A stretch of 64,000 nt of DNA from Gemmatimonadota bacterium (GCA_039589875.1 JBDHGL010000002.1:6608-70607); one strand, 5' to 3'. Numbered from the stretch's first letter, positions 4,023 through 39,771 are shown. The notes: a model not told the origin generated them from the sequence alone. Made by a program: numbers and translations.

Positions 4023-4110
4023 CTTTGCTAGTCGGGCCGCGCGCTTGGCTTACTTCAGCGGAGGCCTGAGCCGCCGCGCGACGGCCACACGTCGGTTAGA
4101 GGGAGTCGCG

Positions 4111-4761: not shown

Positions 4762-5021
4762 ACAGGCCTCCCTTTAGGGATTCTGAAAAACCCTTGTCGA
4801 AACGCCGACGTCGCGTCCCGAAATACATGTTAGCACGAATGGGGGGGCCATTTAACGTGTAAACCCATCCCATTTTGCGCAAGTGGTAGCTTGCCAGTCC
4901 GGCATCCCGCCGGCGTGCAAGGACGAGGCCATGGCGGCCCGCCCAAGCGTCCGGGGCCTCACACTTTACCGCATTTGCCCGCTCAGCGGAACCCCTGGAA
5001 CAAACGGGGCCCGGAAGGTCC

Positions 5022-6170: not shown

Positions 6171-6461
6171 TATGCGATAATCCTCGCGCTCTGCGAAAAG
6201 GATGCCCGGTCGAGACGAAACCACCGTCACCAGGCCGATCGCGATCTTCCGCTTCCGTAAACATGAAGCGGAACGGAGATGTGATCCAAAGTATGATTCT
6301 TCGGCTGGAGAGATAGGGCTTGTCCTCTGGCTCTGGCGGGCGCCGGACCCGCTTCTCACCTTTGTCCTCGGCCGGTAGCGCCGACGTCGTCGAGCTCGAC
6401 CTAGATCCTCGTCCCCTCATATCCGGCGCCGCCGCACGTTGGACCTGCCAGGACCTGGAGG

Positions 6462-11806: not shown

Positions 11807-11860
11807 TGCGCCGCCGCCAAACACGACAATTCAGGACACCGAGAATACACGGAAGAAGAG

Positions 11861-14856: not shown

Positions 14857-16503
14857 TCAGGTCGCCGACTCCAGCGTCTCCAGCGCGCGGCGCGTAGCCC
14901 AGCGGCGCAGCGCCGGCTTCCAGGCGAAGCCGAAAACGCCGGCCAGGAAGCCCGCGTCGAGCTCGCCGACCGCTCGATCCACCACCGACTCGACGAGCTC
15001 CTCGAGACGTCCACGCTGCGCCGAGCTGAGCGCCGCCATGGATGCGTCCAGCTCCGGAACCGCATAGGCGGCGTCCGGATCCGGCTCGTAGCTGATCACG
15101 TCGTGCAGCCCGCTCTCGATGAGATCCCGTGCGTCTCGTCGACCGGCCCGAAAGTCCGCCTCTCGCCATTCCCGCCGGAAGATGCCGCCGAAGTTGCCAA
15201 GAAAATCTCCGGCCAGACGATCGGGTGGAGCTACCAGATAGAGCGGGAGCGGCTCCTTGTCGTCGAGGCCGCCGGCCGCCTCGATCAGGAAGATGAGCTT
15301 GGAGAGCCGGCTGCGGGCCGCCCGCGTGCCGACTTGCGAGAGGACGTCCGGATACCGTCGTTCGATCCGGTCGAGGCTCTCCTCGAGGAGCTCGAGAACC
15401 GGATCAGCGCCTCCGGCCTCGGTCGCGCGACCGGCGGAGCCACGCCCGCCGCAGGCCAAGCGCCGCTCACAAACGCCCTCGGCCAGCTCGCCCACCGTCC
15501 GGCCCAGCTCGAAGGCGTCCGGGTCGGTGAGGGAGTCTGCGATCTCGGGAAGCCATTCTACGATCGAGTCCAGGATCACCAGGCGCTCGTTCGTTCGGTT
15601 CGCCCGGATCCAATCCTTGGAGCTTCCCTGTCCTAGGAAGGCGCGGCTCAGCAAGCCCGCGACGTCGACGGCCGACCGCGGACCGGCCTCCGGGATCGCC
15701 GACGGCTCGCCCACCGGGCCGGCTTGGAGGGAGGGGTCGACGAAGATGAATCGCCAGTCGTCGTCCTCCTGGCCGGACCTCACCACGAGCCGCTTCGCCA
15801 GACGCACCGGCTCGTTGTTGAAGAGCCCGCCGTCCGTGTACCACATGCCGATGTCGCCGAGCTCGGCGAGCACGGAGCCGGCGTAATCGCTTCCTCGTCG
15901 GTCGAGTCGCCGAGGCGGGAAGGCGAATGGAAAGCTGGCAGAAGCCACTGCTGCCCGACGGATCTCATCCCACACGGCTGCGCCGGCCGCATCATCTCGA
16001 TCGAGCTCGAAGCTGATCCAATCATCGAACATCCGCGTGCCGAACGACTGTTCGCTCCGGTTGAGGTAGCCCTGCAAGAGCTCGTATTCGACGCCGTGCA
16101 GGTTCGACAGCGTCAGTCCCAGCCCGAGCGTATCGGCCAGAAGGGGCGACGGTTCGTCATCGGCCGCCGGATCGGCGGTGACGAGGGCTCGACTGATCTC
16201 GTCCAGCACGTCGGCGTCCAGGAGCGAGGTGCGGGTTGCGCGGCTCGAGCGCAGGAGCAGCGAGGCATCCATGCCCTCGATCCATGCCTTGCCGATCCAT
16301 GGAAGGAGGTTGGGATTAACGACGAGCGCACGGGCGGCCACGGCGGCGGTGAGCGCTCCGGCGGACGCTCCGGCCAGCACGCCGACCTGCACGGGTTCCC
16401 GGTTGCGATTTCGGCCGAGTGCGGCCAACAGCTCGGTAACGGCGCCGGCCGTATAGGTGCCGAGAGAGGCTCCGCCGCTGAGGATCAGTCCGATCTTCAT
16501 CAT
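14857..16503 (-). CDS. Patatin-like phospholipase family protein
   Basis: Begins MMKIGLILSGGASLGTYTAGAVTELL at the internal ATG pair (16503..16498). The active-site G-x-S-x-G is GASAG. The upstream 140 aa of the ORF-track ORF are Arg-rich and overlap the M23 gene, so they were rejected. Confidence 0.8.
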   Translation of the reverse strand: MMKIGLILSGGASLGTYTAGAVTELLAALGRNRNREPVQVGVLAGASAGALTAAVAARALVVNPNLLPWIGKAWIEGMDASLLLRSSRATRTSLLDADVLDEISRALVTADPAADDEPSPLLADTLGLGLTLSNLHGVEYELLQGYLNRSEQSFGTRMFDDWISFELDRDDAAGAAVWDEIRRAAVASASFPFAFPPRRLDRRGSDYAGSVLAELGDIGMWYTDGGLFNNEPVRLAKRLVVRSGQEDDDWRFIFVDPSLQAGPVGEPSAIPEAGPRSAVDVAGLLSRAFLGQGSSKDWIRANRTNERLVILDSIVEWLPEIADSLTDPDAFELGRTVGELAEGVCERRLACGGRGSAGRATEAGGADPVLELLEESLDRIERRYPDVLSQVGTRAARSRLSKLIFLIEAAGGLDDKEPLPLYLVAPPDRLAGDFLGNFGGIFRREWREADFRAGRRDARDLIESGLHDVISYEPDPDAAYAVPELDASMAALSSAQRGRLEELVESVVDRAVGELDAGFLAGVFGFAWKPALRRWATRRALETLESAT

Positions 16504-17435
16504 GGCCTCGGCGTCTCCGGAACCCTGAGGTCCAGCAGGCTGCGCGCGTCGAGTCTCTCCGCGTCGACGAAGAAGCTCCAGTGGAGGTGCGGGCCGGTGA
16601 CTCGACCGGTGGCGCCCACTTGACCGATTACCTGTCCCCTCTCGACGACGTCGCCCTCGCTCACATCGATTCGCGATAGGTGGTAGTATCCACTGAACAC
16701 CCCGAGGCCGTGATCCACGTAAATGGCGTTGCCCGCGTAATAGAGGTTGCGGGCGATCGCGATCCGGCCGCGTCCGGCCACGTGGACCTCGGCTCCGACA
16801 TCTCCCGCCAGGTCCACGCCCCAGTGACGGCTCTGCAGTTCGCCGTTGAAGACCCTCTTCTGACCGAACGGGCTCGTGATGCGCGTATTGCGAGGTCGAA
16901 CGAAGTTCCCATCGATCAGCCAATCGGGAGTCACCTGGCGCAGAGTAGAGCGGACCAGCTCGCGCTCCCGGTCGATCCGCTCCATCACATCCGCCGGTGG
17001 GTTAGTGAACTGAGGAGCCACGCTCAACTCGGTCTCTCCATATACGTGGGGCCTCACCTGAAGCGTCCAGTGCTGTTCCACGGGCGGCTCGCCCGGCCGG
17101 CTCGTAGTGACGCTCAACTCGGTCGGACCCGATTCGTCGCTTGGAAGCGGTGCCAGGCCGAACCAAGCTCCGGCCAGTCGACCGAAACGCACCGGGCGGC
17201 CACCGAGCTCCGCCGCCACCGCCACGCTCCCGCCATCCTCCGGCAGCTCGACGGTGATCGCCAGTGCCGAGCCATCGGTGGGGCTAGCGGGTTCCCAGCG
17301 GACCGCGGCCGGCGCATGCAGCGGGGCGGCGTCCTCCTGGAACGAGCCCGGTACCGCGCCTGCCGGGGCGGCGACGAACAACGCCGCGAACAACACGATC
17401 GAGTCCTTATGAAACCGGCCGGCCCTGCCCATCAT
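16500..17435 (-). CDS. M23 family metallopeptidase (LytM domain), secreted
   Basis: Signal peptide MMGRAGRFHKDSIVLFAALFVAAPAGA. LytM motifs HWGVDLAG...and...GPHLHWSF. Its stop overlaps the patatin start and its start overlaps the upstream gene's stop. Confidence 0.8.
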   Translation of the reverse strand: MMGRAGRFHKDSIVLFAALFVAAPAGAVPGSFQEDAAPLHAPAAVRWEPASPTDGSALAITVELPEDGGSVAVAAELGGRPVRFGRLAGAWFGLAPLPSDESGPTELSVTTSRPGEPPVEQHWTLQVRPHVYGETELSVAPQFTNPPADVMERIDRERELVRSTLRQVTPDWLIDGNFVRPRNTRITSPFGQKRVFNGELQSRHWGVDLAGDVGAEVHVAGRGRIAIARNLYYAGNAIYVDHGLGVFSGYYHLSRIDVSEGDVVERGQVIGQVGATGRVTGPHLHWSFFVDAERLDARSLLDLRVPETPRP

Positions 17436-18898
17436 GAGCGCAGCCCGCGGGTGAACCGGAAATACCGGTCCAACCACTTCTTCGAGTTCTCGGTCAGCTT
17501 GGCTCGGTAGTACATATCCGCAGTACGTCGAATCCCCTCGCTCATGGTCGGATACGGGTGGATAAGGCCCGACAGGTCCGAGACCCGGAGCCCGTGCCGC
17601 ATGGCCAACGCCACCTCCACGATCATCGTCCCGGCGGAGGGCGCCAGCACGTGCCCTCCGAGCAATCGTCCCCGCGTGTCCGTGATCAACTTGACGAGTC
17701 CTCCCGATTCCCGGTCCGTGATCACCCGATCCAAACCGGCGGTATCGTAACGATACACCTGTACGTTCCTGTGGCGAACCCGCGCCTCCTCCTCCGTCAG
17801 ACCCACCCGAGCGAGCGGTGGGTCCGTGAAGATGGTCCAGGGGACGACCGAGTAGTCGACCCGCGCACCAAACGGAAAGAGGGCGTTGCGCAGCACCGAG
17901 CGAGCCTCGTGGTCGGCTACGTGAGTGAATCGGAGGCCGCCCGTCACATCTCCGGCCGCGAAGATATGACGCCGGGTCGTACGGAGCCTACTGTCGACAC
18001 GAATGCCATCTCGATCCGTATCGACGCCGCCGGCTTCCAGATCGAGTTCGGAGACGTTCGGACTTCTTCCGGCCGCGACGAAGATGCGCTCGGCGCTTAC
18101 ACGAAGGCTGTCTCCTCGCGGCCTTTCCACCGGAGCTACGAGCAACGAGGCTTGTCCATCGTGCCGCTCGGCACCAGTGGCGCTGTGCCCCGTTAGGATC
18201 GTGATGCCCTCGCCGCGAAGTCGATCCTCGAGCCCGGCCACGAGCTCGCTGTCCTCTTGCGGCAGGATACGCGGAGCCATCTCGACGAGCGTGACATCTA
18301 CGCCGAGCCGCCGGTAGGCCTGCGCGAACTCGATCCCGATCGGTCCTCCGCCCAGGATGATCACCGAGGCAGGTAGGGCGGTATCCTCGAAGGCCGATTC
18401 GTGGGTGTAGTAGCCGGTCTCTTCGAGGCCCGCGATCGGCGGAATCGCCGGTCGACTCCCGGTCGCGATCAGGAATCGTCGGCCCCGCAGAACTCGATCT
18501 CCGGCCTCGACCCGGTCGGGCGCGAGAAACCGAGCGGGCGTGCCTTCGAGCACGTCGACGCCTAGTCCCCGGAAACGGTCCGGATCATCGTGAGGCTGGA
18601 CCCGGGCTCGCGCTTCCCTGACGCTCTCGAGCACAGCCGAGTGCCGCGTGGAATCGAGCTGCCGGTCTTCGATGCCGAACTCGGAGGCCCGCCTCATGAG
18701 GTCGGCAAGCCGCGCGGAGCCAATGAGTGCCTTGCTGGGCACACACCCCGTCCAGAGGCATTCGCCACCGAGACGGTGGCGCTCGACCAACGCGGTCCGA
18801 GCACCGAGGCTGGCCGCGCCGGCCGACGCGACCAGACCCGCCGTCCCGCCACCGATCACCACGAGGTCGTACTTCTCGTTCGTAACGGCAGCGCTCAC
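17432..18898 (-). CDS. Class I pyridine nucleotide-disulfide oxidoreductase (dihydrolipoyl dehydrogenase / mercuric reductase-like flavoprotein)
   Basis: GTG start. Motifs: DLVVIGGGTAG, the redox-active disulfide GGECLWTGCVPSK, a second Rossmann region IILGGGPIGIEFAQ, and the dimerisation/His-Pro region ...HPYPTMSE. It has a roughly 35-aa C-terminal extension. Confidence 0.8.
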   Translation of the reverse strand: MSAAVTNEKYDLVVIGGGTAGLVASAGAASLGARTALVERHRLGGECLWTGCVPSKALIGSARLADLMRRASEFGIEDRQLDSTRHSAVLESVREARARVQPHDDPDRFRGLGVDVLEGTPARFLAPDRVEAGDRVLRGRRFLIATGSRPAIPPIAGLEETGYYTHESAFEDTALPASVIILGGGPIGIEFAQAYRRLGVDVTLVEMAPRILPQEDSELVAGLEDRLRGEGITILTGHSATGAERHDGQASLLVAPVERPRGDSLRVSAERIFVAAGRSPNVSELDLEAGGVDTDRDGIRVDSRLRTTRRHIFAAGDVTGGLRFTHVADHEARSVLRNALFPFGARVDYSVVPWTIFTDPPLARVGLTEEEARVRHRNVQVYRYDTAGLDRVITDRESGGLVKLITDTRGRLLGGHVLAPSAGTMIVEVALAMRHGLRVSDLSGLIHPYPTMSEGIRRTADMYYRAKLTENSKKWLDRYFRFTRGLRS

Positions 18899-20501: not shown

Positions 20502-21944
20502 CTATCTTTCAACCGGAGGCCGTCCGTGGCCAGACGCGAGCGCCGCGCGAGCCGCGTGATAGCCACACATCCCGTGCACACCGCCGCCGGGCGGCGTCGA
20601 AGCCGAGCAGAGGTAGATCCCCCGGATAGGCGTCGCGTAGGGGCGCTTGGCCGGAAACGGCCGGGCCAGCGTCTGGAAGAGGGTGTTCGCGCCGCCCGTG
20701 ATGTCTCCGCCGACGATGTTGGCGTTCCTTCCCTCGAGCTCTGCCGGGCCGAGCGCGCTTCGAGCCAGTATGCAATCCCGGAAGCCGGGAGCGAACCGCT
20801 CTACCTGCGCCTCGATCCGATCGGTCATGTCCTGGCTGGAGCCGCTGGGGACATGGCAATAGGCCCAGGCGGTGTGGCTTCCGTCAGGGGCTCGCGATGG
20901 GTCGAACAGGCTCTGCTGAGCGAGCAGCACGAAGGGTCGCTCGGCTGCCCTGCCGTCCCAGGCATCGCGCTCCGAGCTCGCGATCTCCTCGAAGCTTCCT
21001 CCGACGTGGACCGTCGCGGCCCGCCGGCACTCGGAGGCGCGCCACGGGATCGGCTCGCTCAACGCCCAGTCGAGCTTGAACGCACCAGGGCCGTAACGAT
21101 AGCCGGCCAGCCGCCTTCGGTAATGTGCCGGGAGGCGGTCACCCGCCAACTCCAGGAACTGTCGCGGCGTCAGAGAGAGGAGGATCGGTCCGGCCCCGTC
21201 CAGGTCGTCCAGGCTCATGACGGGTCGCTCTGTCACGATCTCTCCGCCGAGGTCCCGCAGAACGGCCTGCAGGCCCTCTGCCAACCGCTCCGAGCCGCCC
21301 CGCGGAAACGGCCAGCCCACGTCGTGGCCCAGTGCCGCAAGCACGAGCCCGAAAGACGCGCTGGGGCGCGCGTCCAGGGGGATGACGGAGTGGCCGGCCA
21401 GCCCGGCCAGAAGCGCTCGGGCTCTATCTTCGTCGAAGCGCCTTGCCACCGACCGGGCGGAGCGTAGGGCGAGCCCCCCGAAGCGGGCGAGCGTCAAGGG
21501 GTGCCTCGGAAGTCCGAGAGGTGACAGGAGATCGACCTCCAGCCTCTCCCAGCCCTCGACGATCGGATTGATGAGCCGCCGATAAGAATCCCCGTCAGCA
21601 CCCAGACCCGACGCGGTATCGTCGATCGAACGCTCCAGAACCACGGCCGTGCCGTCGTCGAGCGGATGGGCCAGCGGCGCGGCCGGCTGTACCCAGGTGA
21701 CGCCGTGCTCCTCGAGTCGCAAACCGCGAAAGAACGGGGACGCGAACCCGAGGGGATGGATGGCCGAGCAGACGTCGTGGCGGAAGCCGGGCAGGGTCAG
21801 CTCGGCGGTGCGCAGACCTCCGCCTACCCGCTCGCCTGCCTCGTAAAGGGTGACCTTTCGGCCCGCCTGTCCGAGGACGATCGCCGCTGCCAGGCCGTTC
21901 GGACCGGCACCGACAACGGCAGCCTCTCGCTGGGATCCGCTCAT
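20502..21944 (-). CDS. Phytoene desaturase (CrtI)-family FAD-dependent oxidoreductase
   Basis: The internal start gives MSGSQREAAVVGAGPNGLAAAIVLGQAGRKVTLYEAGERVGG (dinucleotide-binding motif). The C-terminal region is typical of the CrtI/amine-oxidase family. I chose the start at 21944 so that a roughly 68-nt divergent intergenic region remains before the AOS gene. Confidence 0.7.
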   Translation of the reverse strand: MSGSQREAAVVGAGPNGLAAAIVLGQAGRKVTLYEAGERVGGGLRTAELTLPGFRHDVCSAIHPLGFASPFFRGLRLEEHGVTWVQPAAPLAHPLDDGTAVVLERSIDDTASGLGADGDSYRRLINPIVEGWERLEVDLLSPLGLPRHPLTLARFGGLALRSARSVARRFDEDRARALLAGLAGHSVIPLDARPSASFGLVLAALGHDVGWPFPRGGSERLAEGLQAVLRDLGGEIVTERPVMSLDDLDGAGPILLSLTPRQFLELAGDRLPAHYRRRLAGYRYGPGAFKLDWALSEPIPWRASECRRAATVHVGGSFEEIASSERDAWDGRAAERPFVLLAQQSLFDPSRAPDGSHTAWAYCHVPSGSSQDMTDRIEAQVERFAPGFRDCILARSALGPAELEGRNANIVGGDITGGANTLFQTLARPFPAKRPYATPIRGIYLCSASTPPGGGVHGMCGYHAARAALASGHGRPPVER

Positions 21945-22012
21945 GATTGCAGCGATCTCTGACCGCAGGTAGCTTCCCGTGCTCCGCTCCGCCATCGGAA
22001 AGGTCACACGTC

Positions 22013-23194
22013 ATGCACGTTTTCGCTAAGTGCGAGAACTTCACTACCTCCCTCGAGCTCCGAGAGATCGGCTTGTATCCGTACTTTCAGCCGATCGAGG
22101 AGTCGTGTGACACGACCGTCGTCATCAAAGGCGAGCGAAAGGTCATGGTCGGGTCCAACAACTACATGGGCCTGACCCACGATCCGCGCATCCTGGAAGC
22201 CGCTCGAGAGGCGCTCGACCGATACGGCAGCGGCAATACGGGCAGCCGGTTCCTGAACGGGAACCTCGACCTGCACGATCGGCTCGAGGAGGAGCTCGCG
22301 CAGTTCGTCGGCAAGGAGGCGGCGCTCGTCTTCAGCACGGGCTATCTGACGAACCTGGGGACCCTCTCGGCGCTGATCGGACGGAACGACACGGTCTTCG
22401 TCGACAAGCTGGACCACGCCTGCATCCAGGATGGCGCCCGGCTGGGCTTCGGAAGGGTCCAGCGCTTCAATCACGGCGACTACGGCAAGCTGCGCCAGAT
22501 GCTGGCCGCGGAGAAGGAGGAGCGAGGCAAGCTGATCGCCGTCGATGGCGTGTACAGCATGGAGGGTGATCTGGCCGATCTCCCGAGCCTCGTCCAGCTT
22601 CGTGAGGAGTACGGAGCCGGACTGATCGTAGATGACGCCCACTCACTCGGCGTGGTCGGGCCGGTGGGCGACGGCACGGCGGCCCACTTCGACCTCACCG
22701 AGCGCGTCGACCTGATCACCGGAACCTTCTCCAAGTCGTTCGCCTCCATCGGGGGTTTCGTGGCCGGCAGCGCCACGATCTGCGAGTACCTCCGCAACAA
22801 CTCTCGAGCTCTGATCTTCAGTGCGAGCATGCCGCCCGCCGCAGTCGCCACGGTTCTCAAGGCACTCGAGATCATCCGGGCCGAGCCGTGGCGGCGAGAA
22901 CAGCTGTGGAAGAACACCCACAAGATGACCGAGGGCTTTCGAACGATAGGCTTCGAGATCGGACCCACGGAGACCCCGATCATCCCTGTGCTCGTCGGGC
23001 CCATGGACAAGACCTTCCGGTTCTGGCGCGAGCTGTTCGACGCGGGAGTGTTTACGAACCCGGTCGTACCGCCCGCGGTGCCCGAAGGGAGCTGCCGCCT
23101 CCGCACGAGCTACATGGCGACCCATACCGAGGAGCAGCTGGATTTCGTTCTCGAGTGCATCGAGAAGATCGGCAAGAAGCTCCAGGTCGTGTAG
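22013..23194 (+). CDS. Alpha-oxoamine synthase family PLP enzyme (serine palmitoyltransferase / 8-amino-7-oxononanoate synthase-like)
   Basis: 393 aa from the ATG at 22013 (MHVFAKCENF...). Motifs: GSNNYMGL, GSGNTGSRFLNG, the PLP lysine in GTFSKSF, and ...DDAHSLGVVG. Confidence 0.85.
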   Translation: MHVFAKCENFTTSLELREIGLYPYFQPIEESCDTTVVIKGERKVMVGSNNYMGLTHDPRILEAAREALDRYGSGNTGSRFLNGNLDLHDRLEEELAQFVGKEAALVFSTGYLTNLGTLSALIGRNDTVFVDKLDHACIQDGARLGFGRVQRFNHGDYGKLRQMLAAEKEERGKLIAVDGVYSMEGDLADLPSLVQLREEYGAGLIVDDAHSLGVVGPVGDGTAAHFDLTERVDLITGTFSKSFASIGGFVAGSATICEYLRNNSRALIFSASMPPAAVATVLKALEIIRAEPWRREQLWKNTHKMTEGFRTIGFEIGPTETPIIPVLVGPMDKTFRFWRELFDAGVFTNPVVPPAVPEGSCRLRTSYMATHTEEQLDFVLECIEKIGKKLQVV

Positions 23195-23343
23195 GCAGCA
23201 GGTCTCGAGACGCTCACCTGACGAGCCCGAATCGCCGCCCGTTGAGTCAGAACACCGCCCCCGGCACGAGCCCGGACGCCCCAGGCGCCAGCCTCCCGGC
23301 CCCAGCCGTCTCCGTCATACCGGCGACGCCGCAGAGCGACACC

Positions 23344-24426
23344 ATGGAGGCCTTCATCCGACTCCCGTGGTCGATCTACGAGGGTGATCCCACCTGGGTC
23401 CCACCGCTGTTGCACGATATGCGTGTGATGATGAACCCGGAGCGCCATCCGTTCTACAGACACTCCGAGGTGCAGGCATTTCTCGCCCTCCGAGACGGTC
23501 GGCCCGTCGGCCGGGTGGCGGCGATCCGAAACCGGCGCCACGAGGAGTTCCAAGGCGAGAGGATCGGGTTCTTCGGGTTCTACGAGTGCGAAGACGATGC
23601 GGCTGCTTCCGCCTCCCTGCTCGAGGCCGCCGCCGCTTGGCTTGCCGAGCGTGGGCTGGAGGGGATGCGAGGGCCGGCCAGCTTTTCGACGAACGAGCAG
23701 GCCGGCTTGCTCGTCGAGGGGTTCGACGATCCACCCGCGGTTCTGATGAACTACAATCCGCGGTACTACGAGGAGCAGATGCTCGCCTACGGCTTGAGGC
23801 CCTCCAAGACGCTGGTCGCCTATTACCTCCATGCGGGCCAGCCGCCGGAGTATCTGGCGCGAGCCGCGGCAGCCGTAGAGCGACGGACGGGAGTGAAGGT
23901 CAGGCCGTTGAGCAAGCGCGATTTCGGACGGGACCTCGAGATCATCAAGGATCTCTACAACTCGGCGTGGGAGCGTAACTGGGGGTTCGTGCCGATGACC
24001 GACGAGGAGATCGACCATATGGCAAAGGAGTTGAAGCCGGTTCTGGATCCTCGTCTAGCGCTGATCGGCGAAGACCCGGAGGGGCGGCCGGTGGGCTTCG
24101 CTCTGGCCCTGCCCGACCTGAATCAGGTGCTCAAGCACCTGAACGGCCGGCTCTTGCCGTTCGGGATCCTCAAGGCCCTATGGCTGCGCCGAAAGGTCGA
24201 CCGCCTCCGCGTGCTCACCCTCGGCGTGCGAGAGGAGTACCGCGGCCGCGGCCTCGACGCGCTCTTCTACCTCGGCATTTTCCGCGGCGGCAACGTCCAG
24301 GGAATCGATCGGGGCGAGTTCTCCTGGGTGCTCGAGGACAACGACATGATCCGAAAGCCCCTGGAGCGAATGGGGGCCCGCATCTACAAGCGTTACCGCC
24401 TGTACGACGGACCCCTCGTCTCGTGA
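23344..24426 (+). CDS. Large (about 360 aa) GNAT-family acyltransferase and candidate N-acyltransferase of the lipid cluster (bacterial ceramide synthase-like). The functional call is inference.
   Basis: The ATG at 23344 gives MEAFIRLPWSIYEGDPTWVPPLL... The C-terminal part carries GNAT motif A (VREEYRGRGLDALFYLGIF). Frame-contiguous upstream sequence may hold an alternative non-ATG start. Confidence 0.65.
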   Translation: MEAFIRLPWSIYEGDPTWVPPLLHDMRVMMNPERHPFYRHSEVQAFLALRDGRPVGRVAAIRNRRHEEFQGERIGFFGFYECEDDAAASASLLEAAAAWLAERGLEGMRGPASFSTNEQAGLLVEGFDDPPAVLMNYNPRYYEEQMLAYGLRPSKTLVAYYLHAGQPPEYLARAAAAVERRTGVKVRPLSKRDFGRDLEIIKDLYNSAWERNWGFVPMTDEEIDHMAKELKPVLDPRLALIGEDPEGRPVGFALALPDLNQVLKHLNGRLLPFGILKALWLRRKVDRLRVLTLGVREEYRGRGLDALFYLGIFRGGNVQGIDRGEFSWVLEDNDMIRKPLERMGARIYKRYRLYDGPLVS

Positions 24427-24430
24427 TCGG

Positions 24431-25390
24431 GTGCGCGACATGACGATGCCTACCACCCTCATCACCGGCGCGACCGGCTTTCTCGGCGGCCAGGTCGCGG
24501 CCGCCTGGGTCGATCAGGGACACTCGGTTCGCTGCACGGTGCGGGCGACGAGCGATGCCAGTCGGCTGAACGACCTGGGCGTGGAGCTCGCGGAGTGGGA
24601 CGTCCACGCCACCGAGGGCGTGCGATCGGCCCTGGAGGGGATCGACACCGTGGTTCACGTCGCCGGGATCACCCGAGCGCCGCGCGAGACCGAGTACTTC
24701 CAGGTAAACGCGACCGGCGCCGGCCGCTTGGCGGAAGCGGCCGCCTCCGCTGGCGTGAGACGCTTCGTTCTCGTCAGCAGCCTTGCGGCACGGGGACCGG
24801 ACGGCGGGACCGGCCCGATCTCCGCGTACGGCGCGAGCAAGCTCCGGGGCGAGGAGCTCGTGCGACTGTTCGAGGAGAAGATGGAGATCGTCATCTTGCG
24901 GCCAGGGGGGATCTACGGGCCGCGGGACACCGACATGTTCCCCCTGTTCGAATCAGCCAGTCGCGGATGGCTTGTGGCGCCGGCCGGCGGTCCGCCGCTG
25001 CAGCCGATCTACGTGACCGACGCGGCGAGTCTCACGGTCGCGGCAGGAACGGCGCCCCACGCGATCGGACCGTTCCCGGTAGCGGAGGAAGGGCAGTACG
25101 AGTGGACCGATGTGCGCGATGGTCTTGCCGCCGCTCTCGATCGGCAGATCCGCATCGTCTCGCTGCCGGCGACCGTTTTCATCTCCATCGGCGCCGTAGC
25201 GGAGACCGCGGCCCGCCTGTTGAGGAAGGATCCGCCGCTCGACAAGCGAAACGCGATCGACCTGAGCCGGCACGGATGGACGTGCGATACGGCACCGACG
25301 CGCGAGACGTTCGGGTGGCGCACCGAGGTGGCTCTGCCGGAGGGTTTGGCGAAGACCGTGCGCTGGTACCGCGACGCCGGGTGGTTGTGA
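24431..25390 (+). CDS. NAD(P)-dependent epimerase/dehydratase-fold reductase (CerR-like 3-ketosphinganine reductase candidate)
   Basis: Motifs: LITGATGFLGGQVAAAW, YGASKLRGE (YxxxK), and RPGGIYGPRD. It lies 4 nt after the GNAT stop. Confidence 0.8.
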   Translation: MRDMTMPTTLITGATGFLGGQVAAAWVDQGHSVRCTVRATSDASRLNDLGVELAEWDVHATEGVRSALEGIDTVVHVAGITRAPRETEYFQVNATGAGRLAEAAASAGVRRFVLVSSLAARGPDGGTGPISAYGASKLRGEELVRLFEEKMEIVILRPGGIYGPRDTDMFPLFESASRGWLVAPAGGPPLQPIYVTDAASLTVAAGTAPHAIGPFPVAEEGQYEWTDVRDGLAAALDRQIRIVSLPATVFISIGAVAETAARLLRKDPPLDKRNAIDLSRHGWTCDTAPTRETFGWRTEVALPEGLAKTVRWYRDAGWL

Positions 25391-25391
25391 G

Positions 25392-26264
25392 ATGACAGGC
25401 AGAGACGACGCCACGGGCCTGCTCGCCATCGACCGGTTGGCCCTCACCTATATCGGCCTGACAGCCGTCTTCGGGCTGGTGGCGGGGGGATGGGGGCTCG
25501 CCATTACCGGACTGCACGCGACCGCGATAGTCCTGATTCTCTGGGCAGCCCGCAGGCCTCTGCCGACGGGTCCGGTGGGAAGGTTCTTCCGGCTTCTGTA
25601 CCCGGTGATCGCTACGCCCCTGTACTACAAGGAGCTGGCGGTCCTGACCCCGACATTCCACACAACCACTCTGTTCGATTCGATCGTCCAGAGCTGGGAG
25701 ATCGGCGTCTTCGGTTCCCAGATCAGCCAGGAGGCCATCAACTGGCTGCCCTGGTTCTGGCTCTCCGAGTTCATGCAGCTCGGCTACCTGACGTACTACT
25801 TCGTCATCCCCTTCCTGGCCATCGCGGCGTGGCGGGCGACGGGTGTGGCCGGTTTTCACCGCTTCTCGGTCACCGTCACCCTCGCCTTCATCGTCTGCTA
25901 TTTGTGGTTTGTCGCTTTTCCCGTGGCGGGCCCGAGGTATTGGTTCGGCGCACTGGAGGGGCCGCTCACAGATGGCAGCTTCGGCACTTTCACGCGCAAC
26001 ATGCTCGCGGCCGCCTCGTCGAAGGGGACCGCCTTCCCGAGCTCCCACGTCGCCGGGACGGTAGCCGCATGGTTTGCCGCGGGCTTGGAGGACGAGAGGC
26101 CGTTCTTTTTCGCCGCCGTGCCCGTGCTGGCGCTCACGATCGGAACCATCTGGGGCGGGTATCACTATGCCATCGATGCGGCAGCCGGCGTCCTGATCGC
26201 GGTCGCCGCGACCGCGATCGCGCCACGCCTCGTGGCCCGCGCACCGCTTGCGGAGGGGGCGTGA
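25392..26264 (+). CDS. PAP2-superfamily integral membrane protein (Aur1/sphingomyelin-synthase-like head-group transferase or lipid phosphatase candidate)
   Basis: Multiple TM helices. PAP2 C2/C3-like motifs FPSSHVAGT and YHYAIDAAAGVLIA. Its start lies 1 nt after the reductase stop. Confidence 0.7.
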   Translation: MTGRDDATGLLAIDRLALTYIGLTAVFGLVAGGWGLAITGLHATAIVLILWAARRPLPTGPVGRFFRLLYPVIATPLYYKELAVLTPTFHTTTLFDSIVQSWEIGVFGSQISQEAINWLPWFWLSEFMQLGYLTYYFVIPFLAIAAWRATGVAGFHRFSVTVTLAFIVCYLWFVAFPVAGPRYWFGALEGPLTDGSFGTFTRNMLAAASSKGTAFPSSHVAGTVAAWFAAGLEDERPFFFAAVPVLALTIGTIWGGYHYAIDAAAGVLIAVAATAIAPRLVARAPLAEGA

Positions 26265-26309: not shown

Positions 26310-26618
26310 ATGGAAGAACTGGAAATCCTCGCGCCGATGATCGTTACCGTCACGCTGATCCTCGTGGTCGGGGCGGTCATCCTGCTGAAGCCGGTCTCCA
26401 AGCAGGCCTCCGCCCTGCTCGAGCAGATGCTCAAGGATCGAAGAGCCGGTCAGGGCACCCATGACTCCGAGCGACTAACTGCAACGCTGGAAGGTATTTC
26501 GGAGCGTATGCGGCTGCTGGAGGAGCGTCAGACGTTCGCCGAATCGCTGATCCAGACGCGATCGGAGGAGCCTCTCCTGATTCCGCGCGAGCCGGACGCG
26601 GCGAAATCGGAGGAGTAG
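26310..26618 (+). CDS. Small hypothetical membrane protein
   Basis: 102 aa with one N-terminal TM helix (ILAPMIVTVTLILVVGAVILL) followed by a charged tail. No motif recognised. Confidence 0.4.
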   Translation: MEELEILAPMIVTVTLILVVGAVILLKPVSKQASALLEQMLKDRRAGQGTHDSERLTATLEGISERMRLLEERQTFAESLIQTRSEEPLLIPREPDAAKSEE

Positions 26619-26698: not shown

Positions 26699-27253
26699 GT
26701 GGAAGAGCAGGCACTCGTAGACCGCGCCAAGGCAGGCGATCGAATCGCGATGAGCCATCTGTACGAAGCTCATTCGCGGAGGGTTTACGCCGTGGTGCGG
26801 CGGCTGGCAGGCGACGATGACCTCGCTGCCGATCTGTCCCAAGACGCGTGGGTGAGGGCGTTCGAGCGCATTCACCTCTATCGTGGCGAGGCGGCGTTCG
26901 GCACATGGATTCATCGATTGGCGACCAATGTGGCCCTCAACCGGTTGCGTCGACGCACGAAGCGGCCGGAGGTAGAGCGGTCGGCGGTCGGGTTTCCGAC
27001 GTACGAGAAACCGTCGGACGATGCCGTGATCAGCCGCCGGATCCTGAGCGAGGCGCTGGACAGATTGCCGGACGGATACCGGCGCGTGCTTGTGCTGCAC
27101 GACGTCGAGGGTTGGACACATGAGGAAATCGGTAAGGAGCTGGGGATCGCTTCCGGCACCTCTAAATCACAGCTTCACAAGGCGCGCGCGCGAATGCGGC
27201 AGTTCATCGCCCCGTCCGCCGTCACCAGCGAAGCAGGGAATGGCCTACAATGA
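26699..27253 (+). CDS. ECF (sigma-70 family) RNA polymerase sigma factor
   Basis: Region 2 (DLSQDAWVRAFER) and region 4 (VLVLHDVEGWTHEEIGKELGIASGTSKSQLHKAR) are present. Confidence 0.85.
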   Translation: MEEQALVDRAKAGDRIAMSHLYEAHSRRVYAVVRRLAGDDDLAADLSQDAWVRAFERIHLYRGEAAFGTWIHRLATNVALNRLRRRTKRPEVERSAVGFPTYEKPSDDAVISRRILSEALDRLPDGYRRVLVLHDVEGWTHEEIGKELGIASGTSKSQLHKARARMRQFIAPSAVTSEAGNGLQ

Positions 27254-27951
27254 CTGAAACGAAGTCGGAGCACCTGACGCTCGAGATGATTTCGGCGGTG
27301 CTCGAGGAGCCGGAGCTCCATCCGGACGCGGAGACGCACCTGGCTACGTGCGAGATCTGTGGTCTGGAGCACTCGCGGATGCGGCGCATGCTGATGGCCC
27401 TGTCGGGCCTGGGCGAGATCGAGCCGCCGGAGGGCGAGTGGGAGCGAATCGAGGCAAAGCTGCCTGACGAGCGGCAGGTCATCCCGTTCCGGCGCCTGGG
27501 CGTATTCGCTGCTTGGCCAGCTCAAGCGGCCGCCGCGATGCTCGTGTTCGCCGGAGGGATCGCCGCGGGGCTCGCGCTGACCGGTGGTCCGGATGGTGCG
27601 GCCACGTCGGTCGCCGCCGGAGATGCCCTTCCGTACGTCGGGGAGCCGGTGGCGGTCGGTCCGCAGACGGCGTCTCCGTTCGCGTCAGGGCGGTACTACG
27701 ATGCGGTTGCAGAGCTGGAGGGACTCCGCACCCGGCCCGTGAGCTCGGGAAATCTGATGGAGAATCCGGCGGCCGCGGCAGCGCGGTTGGCGAGGTTGGA
27801 CGCTCTGATCCTTGCCTCGCGTGAGGAGCTGGCGAGATCCCCGGCCGATCCGGCGATCAACAACCTCCTTTTCGAGCTCGTCGAGGAGCGGGATGCCCTG
27901 GCGGACGGTTTCGAAGGCACGGTTCGACTCGCAGGGCTCGAGTACAGGTAG
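27250..27951 (+). CDS. Anti-sigma factor (zinc-finger ZAS-like, single TM)
   Basis: Its ATG overlaps the sigma stop (ATGA). It carries an H-x3-C-x2-C motif (HLATCEICG) and a central hydrophobic helix. Confidence 0.7.
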   Translation: MTETKSEHLTLEMISAVLEEPELHPDAETHLATCEICGLEHSRMRRMLMALSGLGEIEPPEGEWERIEAKLPDERQVIPFRRLGVFAAWPAQAAAAMLVFAGGIAAGLALTGGPDGAATSVAAGDALPYVGEPVAVGPQTASPFASGRYYDAVAELEGLRTRPVSSGNLMENPAAAAARLARLDALILASREELARSPADPAINNLLFELVEERDALADGFEGTVRLAGLEYR

Positions 27952-28001
27952 CTCGGGGAAGCAAACTGGACGGATAGATAAAGGTTCTAGATAGAGGATC
28001 G

Positions 28002-29222
28002 ATGCAGAAGTCGAATATGAGGTTCATCGTTTTCGCTGCGGCTGCGGCGAGCGTGCTTGGCGCGGAGGCCCTCCTCGCCCAGCAGCCCGAGCAGCCGGAT
28101 GCCGCGCCGAGAGTGGCGCCCACGCCACGCTACGCCCCACAGGCGCGCGAAGCTGAGAAGCCACCCAAGGCCTGGCTGGGCGTTGGCCTCGAGACCCATC
28201 GAGAGTGTCGTAACAACACCGAAGACGATTGCGAGTACCGCATGCTCATCAGCTCCGTCGTCGTCGGTAGCCCGGCCGAAGAGGGCGGGATCGAGGTCGG
28301 CGATCTGATCGTCTCGTTGGACGGCGCCGCGCCGGGAAGCCCGGAGTTCAAGGTGCGTCTGAACGAGATGGTCGTCGGCGAGCCGGTCGTCATCGAGGTG
28401 TCGCGGGGCGGCGAGCCGCTCCTCCTAGACGTGCTCCCGAGGACCCGTCCGGAGAGGTCGGTTCACGTTCGGGCACGTCCGAGTCAATCGTGGACGTGGG
28501 CGATGCCGGAGGGCGAACTGAAGGTACCGATCGTCATCGAGGTGAACGATTCGACGGACGCGGCCGGTTGGACGTACGGGAGCGATGACGAGGGCTACGT
28601 CGTGATCGCTCCGAGCGATGACGGTTGGCGCGTTCAGGTGCATACGGAAGGTCACGAGGGAGAGGTAGAAGAGGCTCTCAAGCACATGGAGCTTGAGCTT
28701 CGCGATCTCCAGCGACACATGATCGAGGGGTACCAGGAGGAAATCGCGAAGGCGCAGGAGCAGGCGAAGTACTGGGGCCGTGTGAAGGCCGAGCTCACCC
28801 CCGAGCTCGCCGCGATGCGCGACTCCGTACTTGCCCTGGCCCGGGTGAAGCTCGCTGAGGTACGGAAGGCTCGGCTGGTGTATCGAGCCGAGGCCCGCGA
28901 GGCTCGAGCAGCCAACGAGAGCTATTCGTCGGCGCCGCACCTGGCCGAGGCCTCACGCCGCATCGCCGGCGCAGAGTTCGAGCCGCTCGGCGGAGAGCTC
29001 CGCCATGAGGGTCGCGATCAGGGGCTGTTGGTTCTCCGGGTCATTCCGGGGACGCCGGCCCATGCCCTGGGCCTCCGCCGGGGAGACGTCGTCGTCGAGG
29101 TAGGCGGTAGCGAGTGTAGCGCCGTCTCGGATCTCCGAGAGGCGCTCGTCGAATCCGACGAGCGGGTCCCGGTCACGTGGATCCGGAAGGGCGAGGCCAT
29201 GTCGGGAGCGCTGAACGAGTAG
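28002..29222 (+). CDS. Secreted protein with two PDZ domains
   Basis: Signal peptide MRFIVFAAAAASVLGAEALLA. The PDZ-like segments are ...VVVGSPAEEGGIEVGDLIVSLDG...and...VIPGTPAHALGLRRGDVVVEVGG. Confidence 0.65.
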   Translation: MQKSNMRFIVFAAAAASVLGAEALLAQQPEQPDAAPRVAPTPRYAPQAREAEKPPKAWLGVGLETHRECRNNTEDDCEYRMLISSVVVGSPAEEGGIEVGDLIVSLDGAAPGSPEFKVRLNEMVVGEPVVIEVSRGGEPLLLDVLPRTRPERSVHVRARPSQSWTWAMPEGELKVPIVIEVNDSTDAAGWTYGSDDEGYVVIAPSDDGWRVQVHTEGHEGEVEEALKHMELELRDLQRHMIEGYQEEIAKAQEQAKYWGRVKAELTPELAAMRDSVLALARVKLAEVRKARLVYRAEAREARAANESYSSAPHLAEASRRIAGAEFEPLGGELRHEGRDQGLLVLRVIPGTPAHALGLRRGDVVVEVGGSECSAVSDLREALVESDERVPVTWIRKGEAMSGALNE

Positions 29223-29419
29223 AGCCCTCACTCGGGGCACCGGCGGCCGCCACTACGTGCCCCGAACATCTCCATCCGAGTTGTTCCGCACGACTCCACC
29301 AGATCTCTTCTCGAAGAGTTGCCTCACCGCCGTTCGCTCACCGATTGACAGACATTGAGGTGGCCGTCGTACTTTCAGCCCCTACGGGACCCGACGTACG
29401 ACAGGAGAAAACGGACAAC

Positions 29420-30712
29420 GTGCTTACGACCCGGGCCGGCGATTCGCCGGCTTCCACCGACATGCGTGAATCGGACGACGTTTGGGAGCGCTATGCGGAG
29501 TATCTGAAGACTCCGCCCGAGACGGTCGTCGAGTGGACCGACCCACTCAGCGAAGCCCGAGGCTGGCTCGTTCTGAACAGCCTGCGCGGCGGCGCGGCAG
29601 GTGGCGGGACGCGAATGCGAGTCGGGCTCGATCGAGACGAGGTCACGTACCTCGCCAAGGTCATGGAGCTGAAGTTCGCGGTCTCCGGCCCGCCGATCGG
29701 AGGTGGGAAGTCCGGGATCGCCTTCGATCCGACGGACCCACGCAAAGCCGAAGTTCTCGGCCGTTGGTTCACGGCCATCAATCCCTACTTGAAGACGGTC
29801 TACGGAACGGCCGGCGATCTGAACGTCGACGAAAGCCGAGATGTGTTGCCGATCTTCCAGGAGCTTGGCCTGGCTCATCCGCAGGAAGGTGCTCTCCGCG
29901 GGCATTACGCCCTGTCCGGCGAAGCGCTGGAGCACCGATTGCTCGCCATGACCGCCGGAATGGAGCAGCGCGTCGACCGGCGGTTCGCACCGGCCGGCTG
30001 GAACGCCTGCATCTCCGACCTGGTGACCGGTTACGGCGTGGCTGCCTCGGCGCGTCGTCTCCTGGAGCTCCGGGGAAGCTCCGTCGAGGGAGCGCGGGTC
30101 CTGATCGAGGGCTTCGGCTGCGTTGGCGGGGGCGCGGCTTTCTTCCTTGCCGATTCAGGGGCAAAGATCGTCGGGATCGTCGATGTGGCGAACGGTCTCG
30201 TAGCCCCGGATGGTCTCGATGCGGAGGACGTGGACGGACTCCTGGCGCGCCGGCAGGGGACGACCCTCCCGGTCACTTCCGAAGACGCCAGCCGGGCCGA
30301 TCGCGAGGCGTTCAAGCGCGTACCGGCGGATCTGTTCGTGACGGCAGCGGCCTCCGGCACGCTGACGGCCGACGTTCTCGACCGGCTGGATGGCCAGGGC
30401 GTTCAGACGATCGTATGCGGCTCCAACCTGCCTTTCGCGTCTGTATCACCCGCGGACACGGCGCTGCAGCGGGAGGCGGACTCGCGGTTCGCGATCGCTA
30501 CGGATTTCATCGCGAACCTCGGGGCGGCCAATGCCTTCGCGTATCAGATGGAGCGAGATGCGGCGGCCGCGGCGCCGGAGTTCTTCGAGTCGGTCGGCTC
30601 GACCGTTCGTGCCGGACTGGACGAGGCCGTTCGCCGCGCTGGCTCGGCCGAGCGCGGTCTGGTGGCGGCTGCGCTGGACATGGTTCTGGACCGCGTTCGT
30701 CCGGCGGAGTAG
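29420..30712 (+). CDS. Glu/Leu/Phe/Val dehydrogenase family protein
   Basis: Catalytic region GGAAGGGTRMR...KFAVSGPPIGGGKSGIAFDP, plus a C-terminal NAD-binding region GFGCVGGGAAFFL. The likely start is GTG at 29420, preceded by AGGAGA. The ORF-track start at 29177 overlaps the PDZ gene. Confidence 0.75.
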   Translation: MLTTRAGDSPASTDMRESDDVWERYAEYLKTPPETVVEWTDPLSEARGWLVLNSLRGGAAGGGTRMRVGLDRDEVTYLAKVMELKFAVSGPPIGGGKSGIAFDPTDPRKAEVLGRWFTAINPYLKTVYGTAGDLNVDESRDVLPIFQELGLAHPQEGALRGHYALSGEALEHRLLAMTAGMEQRVDRRFAPAGWNACISDLVTGYGVAASARRLLELRGSSVEGARVLIEGFGCVGGGAAFFLADSGAKIVGIVDVANGLVAPDGLDAEDVDGLLARRQGTTLPVTSEDASRADREAFKRVPADLFVTAAASGTLTADVLDRLDGQGVQTIVCGSNLPFASVSPADTALQREADSRFAIATDFIANLGAANAFAYQMERDAAAAAPEFFESVGSTVRAGLDEAVRRAGSAERGLVAAALDMVLDRVRPAE

Positions 30713-34655: not shown

Positions 34656-34674
34656 CCGACCGCGTGCTCGGAGG

Positions 34675-34706
34675 GCTATCAACTGCGAGCGAGCAAGCGG
34701 TTGATA
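34675..34706. repeat. Inverted repeat (8-bp arms, 16-nt spacer) in the intergenic region upstream of the SARP-type regulator
   Basis: CTATCAAC, then tgcgagcgagcaagcg, then GTTGATAG. Confidence 0.4.
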
Positions 34707-34814
34707 GCCGGTTGAGGTTCCTGCTTAGTTTGGCTCCTACTGGAGACAGCGTCTCTATCGGCTCTCGATCACCCGCCCAACGACAAGGGGCGAGCTTGAG
34801 GGCCGAGCATCGGA

Positions 34815-38111: not shown

Positions 38112-38115
38112 TGGA

Positions 38116-39462: not shown

Positions 39463-39771
39463 TCCAAGCCATTTACCAGTCTAACTTACCGGCCAACAAT
39501 GCGATTAGTGCCCAGAGCTGCATTTGTAACACCTCCTTTCGTGACAAGTCGCAACCGTTCCGCTAAGAGGTTGCGCTTCGTCTCCGCTCGGAGGATTCGC
39601 TCAGCTCCCGGTGCTGGTAGCCAGAATTGGGGGCGTTCGCTACTCCGTTTTCAGCAGTATATGCCTATCAGCCTTCTCCTATCTTAGCGCTGTCGGTCGA
39701 AAGGCCTCTTAAGAGAGGATTCCGTAACCGTCGGCGCAAGGCAAACTGCGATGCTGTTGGCGCAGAAAGCC

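Follow-up and report, generated by a model that had tools for sequence, protein, structure and literature searches.

The question raised by this locus is whether four consecutive genes of an uncultured Gemmatimonadota bacterium form an operon for the synthesis of a phosphosphingolipid. The genes (22013-26264, plus strand) lie in a window of 64,000 nucleotides, which is the whole stretch of DNA analysed, and encode an alpha-oxoamine synthase (AOS), a large GNAT protein, an epimerase-fold SDR and a PAP2_3 membrane protein (Table 1). The initial annotation had proposed an operon for a phospho-headgroup sphingolipid made up of Spt, a bCerS-type GNAT, a CerR-type reductase and an IPC-synthase-like PAP2. 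Homology and synteny support this proposal, and from them we infer the individual steps; it is probable that the operon directs the synthesis of such a lipid in this organism.

The description of four plus-strand genes in a row, the last three no more than 4 nt apart, is confirmed by their positions and by the gaps between GNAT and SDR genes (4 nt) and between SDR and PAP2 genes (1 nt). On the other hand, the length of about 360 aa first given for the large GNAT probably has to be revised. Before the ATG codon the frame encodes the residues VSVIPATPQSD, and these line up with an N-terminus that is conserved among the homologues of six Gemmatimonadota loci, Rubrobacter, Streptomyces and Sphingomonas, a match that makes the longer form likelier; translation probably starts at the TTG codon, in which case the gap between the AOS and GNAT genes is 47 nt instead of 149 nt.

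Table 1. Predicted genes of the locus and its surroundings (positions counted from the first nucleotide of the window).
Feature	Position	Strand	Remarks
Spt-like alpha-oxoamine synthase (AOS)	22013-23194	+	393 aa, GTFSKSF; Pfam Aminotran_1_2
bCerS-type tandem-GNAT N-acyltransferase	23242-24426	+	394 aa from TTG 23242 (probable start); 360 aa from ATG 23344
CerR-type extended-SDR (epimerase-fold) NAD(P)H reductase	24431-25390	+	319 aa; Pfam Epimerase
AUR1-like PAP2_3 membrane protein, candidate ceramide phospho-headgroup transferase	25392-26264	+	290 aa; FPSSHVAGT, YHYAIDAAAG
Small single-pass membrane protein	26310-26618	+	102 aa; without Pfam match
ECF sigma factor	26699-27253	+	Pfam
Putative anti-sigma	27250-27951	+	Pfam
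PDZ protein	28002-29222	+	Pfam
CrtI/CrtO-family FAD oxidoreductase	20502-22007	-	divergent neighbour

Each Pfam assignment of the four genes is generic when taken alone (Aminotran_1_2, Acetyltransf_1, Epimerase and PAP2), as would be expected from a chance row of housekeeping genes consisting of a BioF/Kbl enzyme, an unrelated acetyltransferase, a sugar epimerase and a phosphatase. Against this, the gene order is kept among relatives. Within the best 80 species-representative genomes carrying the PAP2 gene, the AOS, GNAT and SDR genes are found directly upstream of it and on the same strand in all the Gemmatimonadota loci with enough upstream sequence (63/63), and the SDR gene adjoins the PAP2 gene in 75 of 76, so the arrangement is not due to chance. 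Besides, five further phyla or classes have the same trio, the similarity of the AOS to SPT is clear, and the last three genes are separated by gaps of only 1-4 nt. A fortuitous row is hardly credible, and it is effectively refuted by the bit scores of the PDB search together with this synteny.

Regarding the AOS, the search against the PDB retrieved as top matches the SPT entries 3a2b/8guh from Sphingobacterium (430 bits), whereas a BioF/Kbl-type enzyme (287), Sphingomonas SPT (281), Kbl (256), cysteate acyltransferase (236), BioF (232), ALAS (205) and CqsA (129) scored lower. Its top NCBIfam model was NF047600 (SPT, CFB type), with 526 bits against a trusted cutoff of 640, and the protein was also under the cutoffs of two other SPT models and of bioF (394 against 426), all three SPT equivalog models being lineage-specific. 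The Pfam family Aminotran_1_2 was matched with an E-value of 9e-56. The enzyme is thus nearer to characterised SPTs than to the BioF/Kbl type, as the initial annotation had held, and both the bit scores and the ranking of the NCBIfam models indicate that it does not group with BioF/Kbl. The identity with Sphingomonas Spt is 38%, and the motifs GTFSKS (PLP-Lys), DDAHSLG, DHACIQDG and RLRTS align with the matching ones of that protein. The arginine of RLRTS is the conserved counterpart of that in the LLRCS motif of Sphingomonas Spt, and we take this residue to bind the carboxylate of serine. Co-location with bCerS and CerR has been used as the criterion for the 'Spt-like' clade B (PMC11334938); both genes stand in one row with the AOS gene here and in every one of the 63 related genomes.

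The substrate choice of the AOS is not readable with certainty from sequence. Related to this, a non-canonical N-acyl amino-lipid could be considered, in which serine would be replaced as substrate of the enzyme either by cysteate, leading to bases of the sulfonolipid type, or by alanine or glycine, leading to 1-deoxy bases; the scores below the SPT equivalog cutoffs fit this explanation, as does the presence of 1-deoxyceramides and sulfate-1-deoxyceramides in environmental bacteria (PMC11334938). Nevertheless, it seems quite improbable because the AOS scores far higher with the solved SPTs than with Kbl or cysteate-C-fatty acyltransferase and keeps the arginine aligned with LLRCS, and because an AUR1-like transferase requires a C1 hydroxyl, which is present only on serine-derived bases. 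The use of serine by an SPT-type enzyme is the preferred reading.

The second protein is a GNAT-type acyl-CoA N-acyltransferase with a tandem-GNAT fold, homologous over its full length to an N-acetyltransferase of Sphingomonas parapaucimobilis (36% identity over 371 columns, E 1e-69). The gene for the latter comes after lptF-lptG-desaturase, the whole Sphingomonas layout being cerR-acp-spt ... lptF-lptG-desaturase-GNAT. In S. wittichii, Swit_3905, Swit_3906 and Swit_3908 are the orthologues of CC_1156, CC_1155 and CC_1154, respectively (PMC11324152, supplement), and the S. parapaucimobilis layout fits this numbering, which places its GNAT at the CC_1154 position. The resemblance to bCerS noted at first is borne out, the GNAT being homologous along its entire length to the protein that occupies the bCerS position in Sphingomonas; both the GNAT and the SDR are linked to Caulobacter CC_1154 and CC_1164 through Sphingomonas in this way rather than by those sequences directly. 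Besides Sphingomonas, full-length homologues of the GNAT are encoded inside sphingolipid clusters of Rubrobacter, Streptomyces, a Klebsiella plasmid, Aureispira and Nonomuraea. The bCerS family also takes in YghO from E. coli, an observation that counts against the ceramide reading.

The SDR belongs to the Pfam family Epimerase (E 4e-26) and displays TGATGFLGG (GxxGxxG) at residues 12-20. It is 32% identical to the Sphingomonas SDR encoded beside acpR/spt (E 8e-38) and about 50-51% identical to the SDR of the Rubrobacter cluster. NDUFA9 and 39-kDa subunits are among its relatives in the PDB, CerR itself being presumably NDUFA9-like. Three epimerase-like SDRs are encoded in the window, and this one is the best match to all six cluster SDRs tested, with a modest margin over its paralogues (124 bits against 80 and 70 for the Sphingomonas SDR). 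The reductase can consequently be regarded as CerR-type, in agreement with the earlier proposal, since it matches proteins standing at the CerR position.

The same three enzyme families, i.e. an SPT-type AOS, a tandem GNAT of roughly 370 aa and an NDUFA9-like extended SDR, constitute the Caulobacter/sphingomonad pathway of Spt, bCerS (CC_1154, CCNA_01212) and CerR (CC_1164, CCNA_01222), and full-length homology (32-38% identity) is found between the trio and the Sphingomonas cluster proteins. Unlike those systems, the present locus is devoid of dedicated AcpR, AasR, LptF2/G2 and Cpg genes, and spt, bcerS and cerR are contiguous and followed by the PAP2_3 gene. The Spt-GNAT-SDR order is that of the clusters from a Rubrobacter radiotolerans plasmid and from Streptomyces sp. 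NBC_01001, which show the highest identities outside Gemmatimonadota (49% for Spt and 45% for GNAT in the case of Rubrobacter). The ceramide genes had been described as usually scattered, but this does not hold: they are often clustered (PMC11334938), and the contiguous trio of Rubrobacter and Streptomyces together with the published surveys means that contiguity is not the novel point. The trio is a known ceramide pathway in a new lineage, and its coupling to PAP2_3 is a new operon variant. The fourth gene differs elsewhere: in Rubrobacter it encodes a membrane protein with an LtaS-like sulfatase domain and in Streptomyces a protein with a condensation domain. In Nonomuraea gerenzanensis, Spt is transcribed divergently from GNAT-SDR and the trio has a PAP2_3 gene as its immediate neighbour; this gene is convergent, whereas that of the Gemmatimonadota operon is co-directional.

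As read from homology and synteny, like all the enzymatic steps considered here, the three enzymes very probably lead to dihydroceramide. First, 3-ketosphinganine would arise by the Spt-catalysed condensation of L-serine and a long-chain acyl thioester; since genes for a dedicated ACP or for an acyl-ACP synthetase are missing from the neighbourhood, the acyl group probably comes from acyl-CoA or from housekeeping acyl-ACP. The tandem-GNAT bCerS would then N-acylate the long-chain base, and dihydroceramide would result from the NAD(P)H-dependent reduction of the ketone at C3 by the CerR-type SDR. Even for Caulobacter there is no agreement on which comes first, N-acylation or ketone reduction.

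Most enzymes with the PAP2 fold are hydrolases, and the trio could make ceramide beside a PAP2 protein that is not a headgroup transferase but a lipid-phosphate phosphatase acting on ceramide-1-phosphate, long-chain-base phosphate, lipid A or undecaprenyl pyrophosphate. However, the protein matches PF14378 (PAP2_3) with 56.7 bits (cutoff 27; profile positions 26-189 of 190), whereas the generic PAP2 family PF01569 reaches 17.4 bits, under its cutoff of 27.2. The classical phosphatase motif C1 (KxxxxxxRP) is absent from the protein, in which only C2-like PSSH and C3-like HYxxD were found. In structure comparisons, IPC synthases align over 238-287 residues/columns (TM 0.61-0.64), while phosphatases cover only about 160 residues (TM not above 0.43), so that the match is full-length, with the N-terminal helices and the catalytic core included, to IPC synthases only. 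Furthermore, no ceramide or long-chain-base kinase gene is found in the operon, and the close association of the PAP2 gene with cerR in different phyla is consistent with a biosynthetic step. A phosphatase is thus unlikely, and a transferase is preferred.

The catalytic triad (H219, H258 and D262) is invariant in 37 sequences, and its spacing of 39 and 4 is the same as that of H255/H294/D298 in Aur1 (PMC12122681). Membership of PF14378, this spacing and the full-length structural match agree with the previous assignment to the IPC-synthase branch; the identity with Aur1 is only 13-16%, and neither sequence nor profile searches gave any PDB match. Genes for inositol-phosphate synthase, PI synthesis or other headgroup supply are absent among the window proteins scanned, and for lack of inositol genes the protein is named AUR1-like rather than IPC synthase. 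LpxE and PgpB are its next structural matches after the IPC synthases.

The transfer of a headgroup to ceramide by the PAP2_3 protein is somewhat more probable than not. Its His-His-Asp triad would move the phospho-headgroup of a glycerophospholipid to the C1 hydroxyl of ceramide, releasing diacylglycerol, and by analogy with Aur1 this would take place at the outer face of the inner membrane. Sequence does not reveal which headgroup (ethanolamine, glycerol, inositol or choline) is transferred. Yeast Aur1 (PDB 9ivc) and the IPC synthase 9vj4 share with this protein the PAP2_3 domain, the 39/4 spacing and a full-length multi-helix fold; unlike in Aur1, no Kei1-like subunit was seen here. The animal sphingomyelin synthase family (SMS1/2 and SMSr; PDB 8ijq/8ijr) employs the same His-His-Asp chemistry and follows the same logic, from glycerophospholipid phospho-headgroup to ceramide (PMC12122681). 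Among bacteria, BT_1522, the AUR1 homologue of B. thetaiotaomicron, is an earlier example of an AUR1-type PAP2_3 that acts on ceramide, and it is genetically proven to be a PI-dihydroceramide synthase (PMC9246714). Ceramide, the substrate of Aur1 and BT_1522, would also be that of the present protein. BT_1522, likened here by description, sits in an inositol cluster (PMC9246714), whereas this PAP2_3 gene begins right after the cerR stop codon.

PAP2 relatives at 33-36% identity (loci L098, L100 and L101) have an overlapping epimerase-type SDR or the whole trio in front, and Bacteroides finegoldii has an SDR gene that overlaps a PAP2_3 gene with the same motifs; one distant relative (L097) occurs by itself, sphingolipid genes being absent from its surroundings. 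The PAP2_3 protein is a good candidate for a bacterial sphingolipid headgroup-phosphate enzyme, none being described in the literature searched, where no bacterial ceramide phosphoethanolamine/phosphoglycerol synthase was found either. It may tentatively be suggested that the cerR-coupled PAP2_3 subfamily, defined by the motifs FPVAGPRY, KGTAFPSSH and HYxIDA, is such a synthase, AUR1-like and diacylglycerol-releasing, and, as part of the same tentative reading, that the two-gene unit of PAP2_3 and cerR predates the split of Gemmatimonadota, Bacteroidota and Actinomycetota or was moved among them by transfer. If this were true, the PE-dihydroceramide still present in the BT_1522 knockout would be a product of the Bacteroides PAP2_3 copy, and phosphosphingolipids would be regular envelope lipids of Gemmatimonadota, perhaps controlled by the adjacent ECF sigma / anti-sigma / PDZ module.

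Among related genomes, the ECF sigma gene lies directly downstream of PAP2 in 58 of 66 and the PDZ gene downstream in 60 of 66, the order of the three genes of this module being the same in loci L001-L005 and L012-L014. The CrtI-like flavoprotein was correctly placed as a divergent neighbour; nevertheless, of 54 related genomes only 8 have its gene upstream (it is missing in L004, L005 and L012-L014), so it stands outside the conserved module and its proposed role as a pathway partner is not sustained. All its Pfam and NCBIfam matches are far under the cutoffs, and its true start is likely near 21944, given that the homologues have 473 aa. Finally, the small membrane protein that follows PAP2 is conserved in the close clade only, where tblastn found it directly after PAP2 in the nearest relatives with 59-69% identity.

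The ceramide-type genes of the window, whose G+C content is about 65%, form a row of four on the plus strand, encoding an alpha-oxoamine synthase (AOS) of the serine palmitoyltransferase (Spt) type, a GNAT acyltransferase of the ceramide synthase (bCerS) type, an SDR of the CerR type and a PAP2 protein. The ORF listing and the junction sequences give the same arrangement as the initial annotation, with gaps of at most 4 nt among the last three genes (4 nt between GNAT and SDR, 1 nt between SDR and PAP2), and the motifs quoted there (GTFSKSF, FPSSHVAGT and YHYAIDAAAG) are all present. The GNAT start is most likely TTG 23242, giving 394 aa, rather than ATG 23344, because the protein sequence encoded 5' of this ATG matches the N-terminal region that is conserved among the homologues in Gemmatimonadota, Rubrobacter, Streptomyces and Sphingomonas. 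Promoter and terminator matches between 21700 and 27000 were no more numerous than in shuffled sequence, and therefore the scan says nothing on the operon boundaries either way.

Table. Coordinates of the features in the window and in the compared loci.
Feature	Position	Strand	Basis
CrtI-like flavoprotein	20502-22007	divergent	ORF listing
AOS	22013-23194	+	ORF listing, junction sequences
GNAT	end at 24426	+	ORF listing, junction sequences
SDR	24431-25390	+	ORF listing, junction sequences
PAP2 protein	25392-26264	+	ORF listing, junction sequences
Epimerase-fold SDR	5022-6359	-	
Epimerase-fold SDR	8935-9858	-	
Patatin-like phospholipase (688-aa ORF) and M23 peptidase	14857-17477	-	
Small ORF, 102 aa	26310-26618		
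ECF sigma factor, putative anti-sigma protein, two-PDZ protein	26699-29222		
Glutamate dehydrogenase	29177-30712		
BTAD/AAA_16/TPR regulator, 1098 aa	34815-38111	+	
HD_5/MASE9 protein	38116-39462	-	
GGDEF protein with Fe-S and Fe-hydrogenase-like domains	40494-42302	-	
Arylsulfotransferase-family gene	56769-57992	+	
Second PAP2_3 gene, 368 aa	57989-59095	-	
Membrane-anchored sulfatase/LtaS-like gene	59305-61344	+	
LuxE-like/LuxC-like pair, L001	14066-16647		
LuxE-like/LuxC-like pair, L005	14545-17146		
LuxE-like/LuxC-like pair, L012	11724-14268		
LuxE-like/LuxC-like pair, L014	10346-13015		
LtaS-like protein, Rubrobacter (L008)	11194-13263		
Condensation-domain protein, Streptomyces (L010)	10009-11256		
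Proteobacterial-type gene set, Klebsiella plasmid (L009)	115876-122422		
Spt homologue, Nonomuraea (L095)	3765-4921		

The likeness of the AOS to Spt rather than to BioF/Kbl is borne out by scores. Among solved structures the best one was Sphingobacterium SPT (430 bits), followed by BioF/Kbl-type (287), Kbl (256), cysteate acyltransferase (236), BioF (232), ALAS (205) and CqsA (129). The top NCBIfam model is serine palmitoyltransferase, with 526 bits against a cutoff of 640 for this lineage-specific model, and bioF reaches 394; identity to Sphingomonas Spt is 38%, with the active-site motifs in register. The GNAT has full-length relatives at 35-44% identity in plasmid and chromid records (tblastn) and belongs to the same family as E. 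coli YghO. Its relative in Sphingomonas parapaucimobilis (36% pairwise identity, E 1e-69) sits in the arrangement cerR-acp-spt ... lptF-lptG-desaturase-GNAT. This arrangement fits the locus numbers Swit_3905, Swit_3906 and Swit_3908, which the supplement of PMC11324152 gives for S. wittichii as orthologous to CC_1156, CC_1155 and CC_1154 (bCerS) of Caulobacter. The GNAT is linked to CC_1154 by way of this positional orthologue and that supplement. PDB sequence and profile searches gave no useful match for the GNAT, and NCBIfam holds no model matching it or the PAP2 protein. The SDR shares 32% identity (E 8e-38) with the SDR adjoining acp-spt in Sphingomonas and 50% with that of the Rubrobacter cluster, and NDUFA9 is among its PDB relatives. 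Among the three epimerase-like SDRs of the window it scores highest against each of the six cluster SDRs compared; the other two, both 5' of the operon, match cluster-type CerR more poorly. BT_0972, considered as a Bacteroides counterpart, was ruled out as a classical 31-kDa SDR.

These three genes had been described as usually scattered in bacteria, so that their contiguity would be special. Contrary to this, they are often clustered (PMC11334938), and the same trio recurs in Rubrobacter, Streptomyces, a conjugative Klebsiella plasmid, Aureispira and Nonomuraea, frequently in the contiguous order spt-GNAT-SDR; contiguity is therefore not special, and the trio is a new lineage's copy of a known pathway. 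As in the clusters of Bacteroidota and Actinomycetota, and unlike the proteobacterial ones, no dedicated ACP or acyl-ACP synthetase gene lies near the operon. On Rubrobacter radiotolerans plasmid 1 the gene after spt-bcerS-cerR encodes an LtaS-like sulfatase-domain membrane protein, and in Streptomyces it encodes a condensation-domain protein, which hints that ceramide decoration may differ by lineage. On the conjugative IncFIB plasmid of Klebsiella michiganensis (NZ_CP106839.1) the proteobacterial-type set is complete, with genes for a fatty acyl-AMP ligase, an epimerase-type SDR, an ACP, an AOS and a bCerS-family GNAT, and it adjoins a diacylglycerol kinase gene. For the Spt homologue of Nonomuraea gerenzanensis, tblastn gives two separate segments that are shifted relative to each other; a frameshift, a pseudogene or an error in sequencing might account for this.

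The fourth protein belongs to PAP2_3 (56.7 bits), the generic PAP2 model scoring 17.4 bits, under its cutoff. PDB sequence and profile searches gave no match at all; Foldseek gave only two matches at E<=0.001, both IPC synthases (TM 0.61 and 0.64). Residues H219, H258 and D262 are invariant across 37 family members and have the spacing of the Aur1 triad H255/H294/D298 (PMC12122681), and the phosphatase motif KxxxxxxRP is absent. On these features, and on the precedent of BT_1522, a bacterial AUR1 homologue and proven PI-dihydroceramide synthase (PMC9246714), the protein is interpreted as an AUR1-like transferase that would place a phospho-headgroup on ceramide. The name IPC synthase is withheld, since a look for genes of inositol supply in the window gave none and the sequence does not point to one headgroup.

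Almost all homologues of the GNAT (identity 55-90%) and of the PAP2 protein (42-100%) are from metagenome-assembled genomes, which carry the labels Gemmatimonadota, Gemmatimonadales, Longimicrobiales or Palauibacter. When each species was represented by a single genome, 304 genomes had a PAP2 relative, and linkage was counted by tblastn of the window proteins against the loci of the best 80 of them (nearly all labelled Gemmatimonadota, with a few 'uncultured bacterium' and one Akkermansiaceae), the denominators being testable loci. Spt-GNAT-SDR lies directly upstream of PAP2 on the same strand in all 63, and the SDR is adjacent to PAP2 in 75 of 76. The flavoprotein, for which a role on the long-chain base had been suggested as possible, is found upstream in 8/54, so it is a lineage-specific neighbour outside the module; it also lacks similarity to the FAD protein divergently placed beside the Rubrobacter cluster, and pathway membership is ruled out. 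A PAP2 profile search of 1.84 billion representatives returned 531 clusters with E-values of 1e-30 or lower. Four distant representatives, at 33-36% identity to the PAP2 of the window, were examined. A complete spt-GNAT-SDR row precedes the gene in L100, and GNAT-SDR precedes it in L101, where the contig breaks off at the GNAT. In L098/L099, whose DNA has 45% G+C, only an epimerase-type SDR comes before it, overlapping it, and the L097 copy lacks such neighbours. The pairing of an SDR with a PAP2_3 gene is also seen outside Gemmatimonadota: the PAP2_3 gene of Bacteroides finegoldii (WP_237923849.1; 23% identity over the full length, same motifs) has its start overlapped by an epimerase-type SDR gene (26% identity, E 2e-34), and the trio of Nonomuraea has a PAP2_3 gene directly beside it.

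From the observed gene identities and synteny, a catalytic sequence may be inferred in which Spt would form 3-ketosphinganine, bCerS would N-acylate it, CerR would reduce the C3 ketone to give dihydroceramide, and the PAP2_3 enzyme would transfer the phospho-headgroup of a glycerophospholipid onto the C1-OH of ceramide with release of diacylglycerol. The order of N-acylation and ketone reduction is debated even in Caulobacter (PMC11087976). The literature search found no sphingolipid report for Gemmatimonadota, into which the core trio carries the experimentally defined bacterial ceramide pathway. The same search found no bacterial ceramide phosphoethanolamine synthase, no work on the Bacteroides genes beside the CerR homologue, and no assignment of bacterial enzymes putting phosphoethanolamine or phosphoglycerol on ceramide. 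Deletion of BT_1522 in B. thetaiotaomicron abolishes PI-dihydroceramide and leaves PE-dihydroceramide, and some species without BT_1522 homologues still produce PI-dihydroceramide; therefore at least one further headgroup transferase must exist. The PAP2_3 subfamily, tightly linked to cerR in 75/76 Gemmatimonadota genomes and paired with an epimerase-type SDR in B. finegoldii, is a reasonable and concrete candidate for such a ceramide headgroup enzyme.

Directly 3' of the operon, the ECF sigma factor (26699-27253; 58/66 testable loci) and the PDZ protein (60/66) keep their position downstream of PAP2, and the sigma/anti-sigma/PDZ set is seen in the related loci L001-L005 and L012-L014. This conserved module suggests a putative link between envelope stress or regulation and sphingolipid synthesis. 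The small ORF between PAP2 and the sigma gene contains a single hydrophobic helix, matches no Pfam family, and is conserved (59-69% identity) in the closest relatives only. The PDZ gene is followed in many relatives by genes for a LuxE-like acyl-protein synthetase and a LuxC-like acyl-CoA reductase; the window is without this pair, and glutamate dehydrogenase follows. The phospholipase/peptidase pair upstream of the operon region also flanks the operon in L001, L005 and L014.

The stretch 34815-42302 has a lower G+C (0.57-0.61), and Rfam gave no match within 34500-40600. Further downstream, the second, divergent PAP2_3 gene (77 bits) shares with the operon PAP2 the C-terminal PS.H / HYAID motifs and nothing else. 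The LtaS-like protein beside it was rejected as a counterpart of the Rubrobacter fourth gene, the similarity (25%) being generic to the sulfatase domain. With its flanking arylsulfotransferase and sulfatase genes, 56769-61344 may be another lipid-headgroup or envelope-modification locus.
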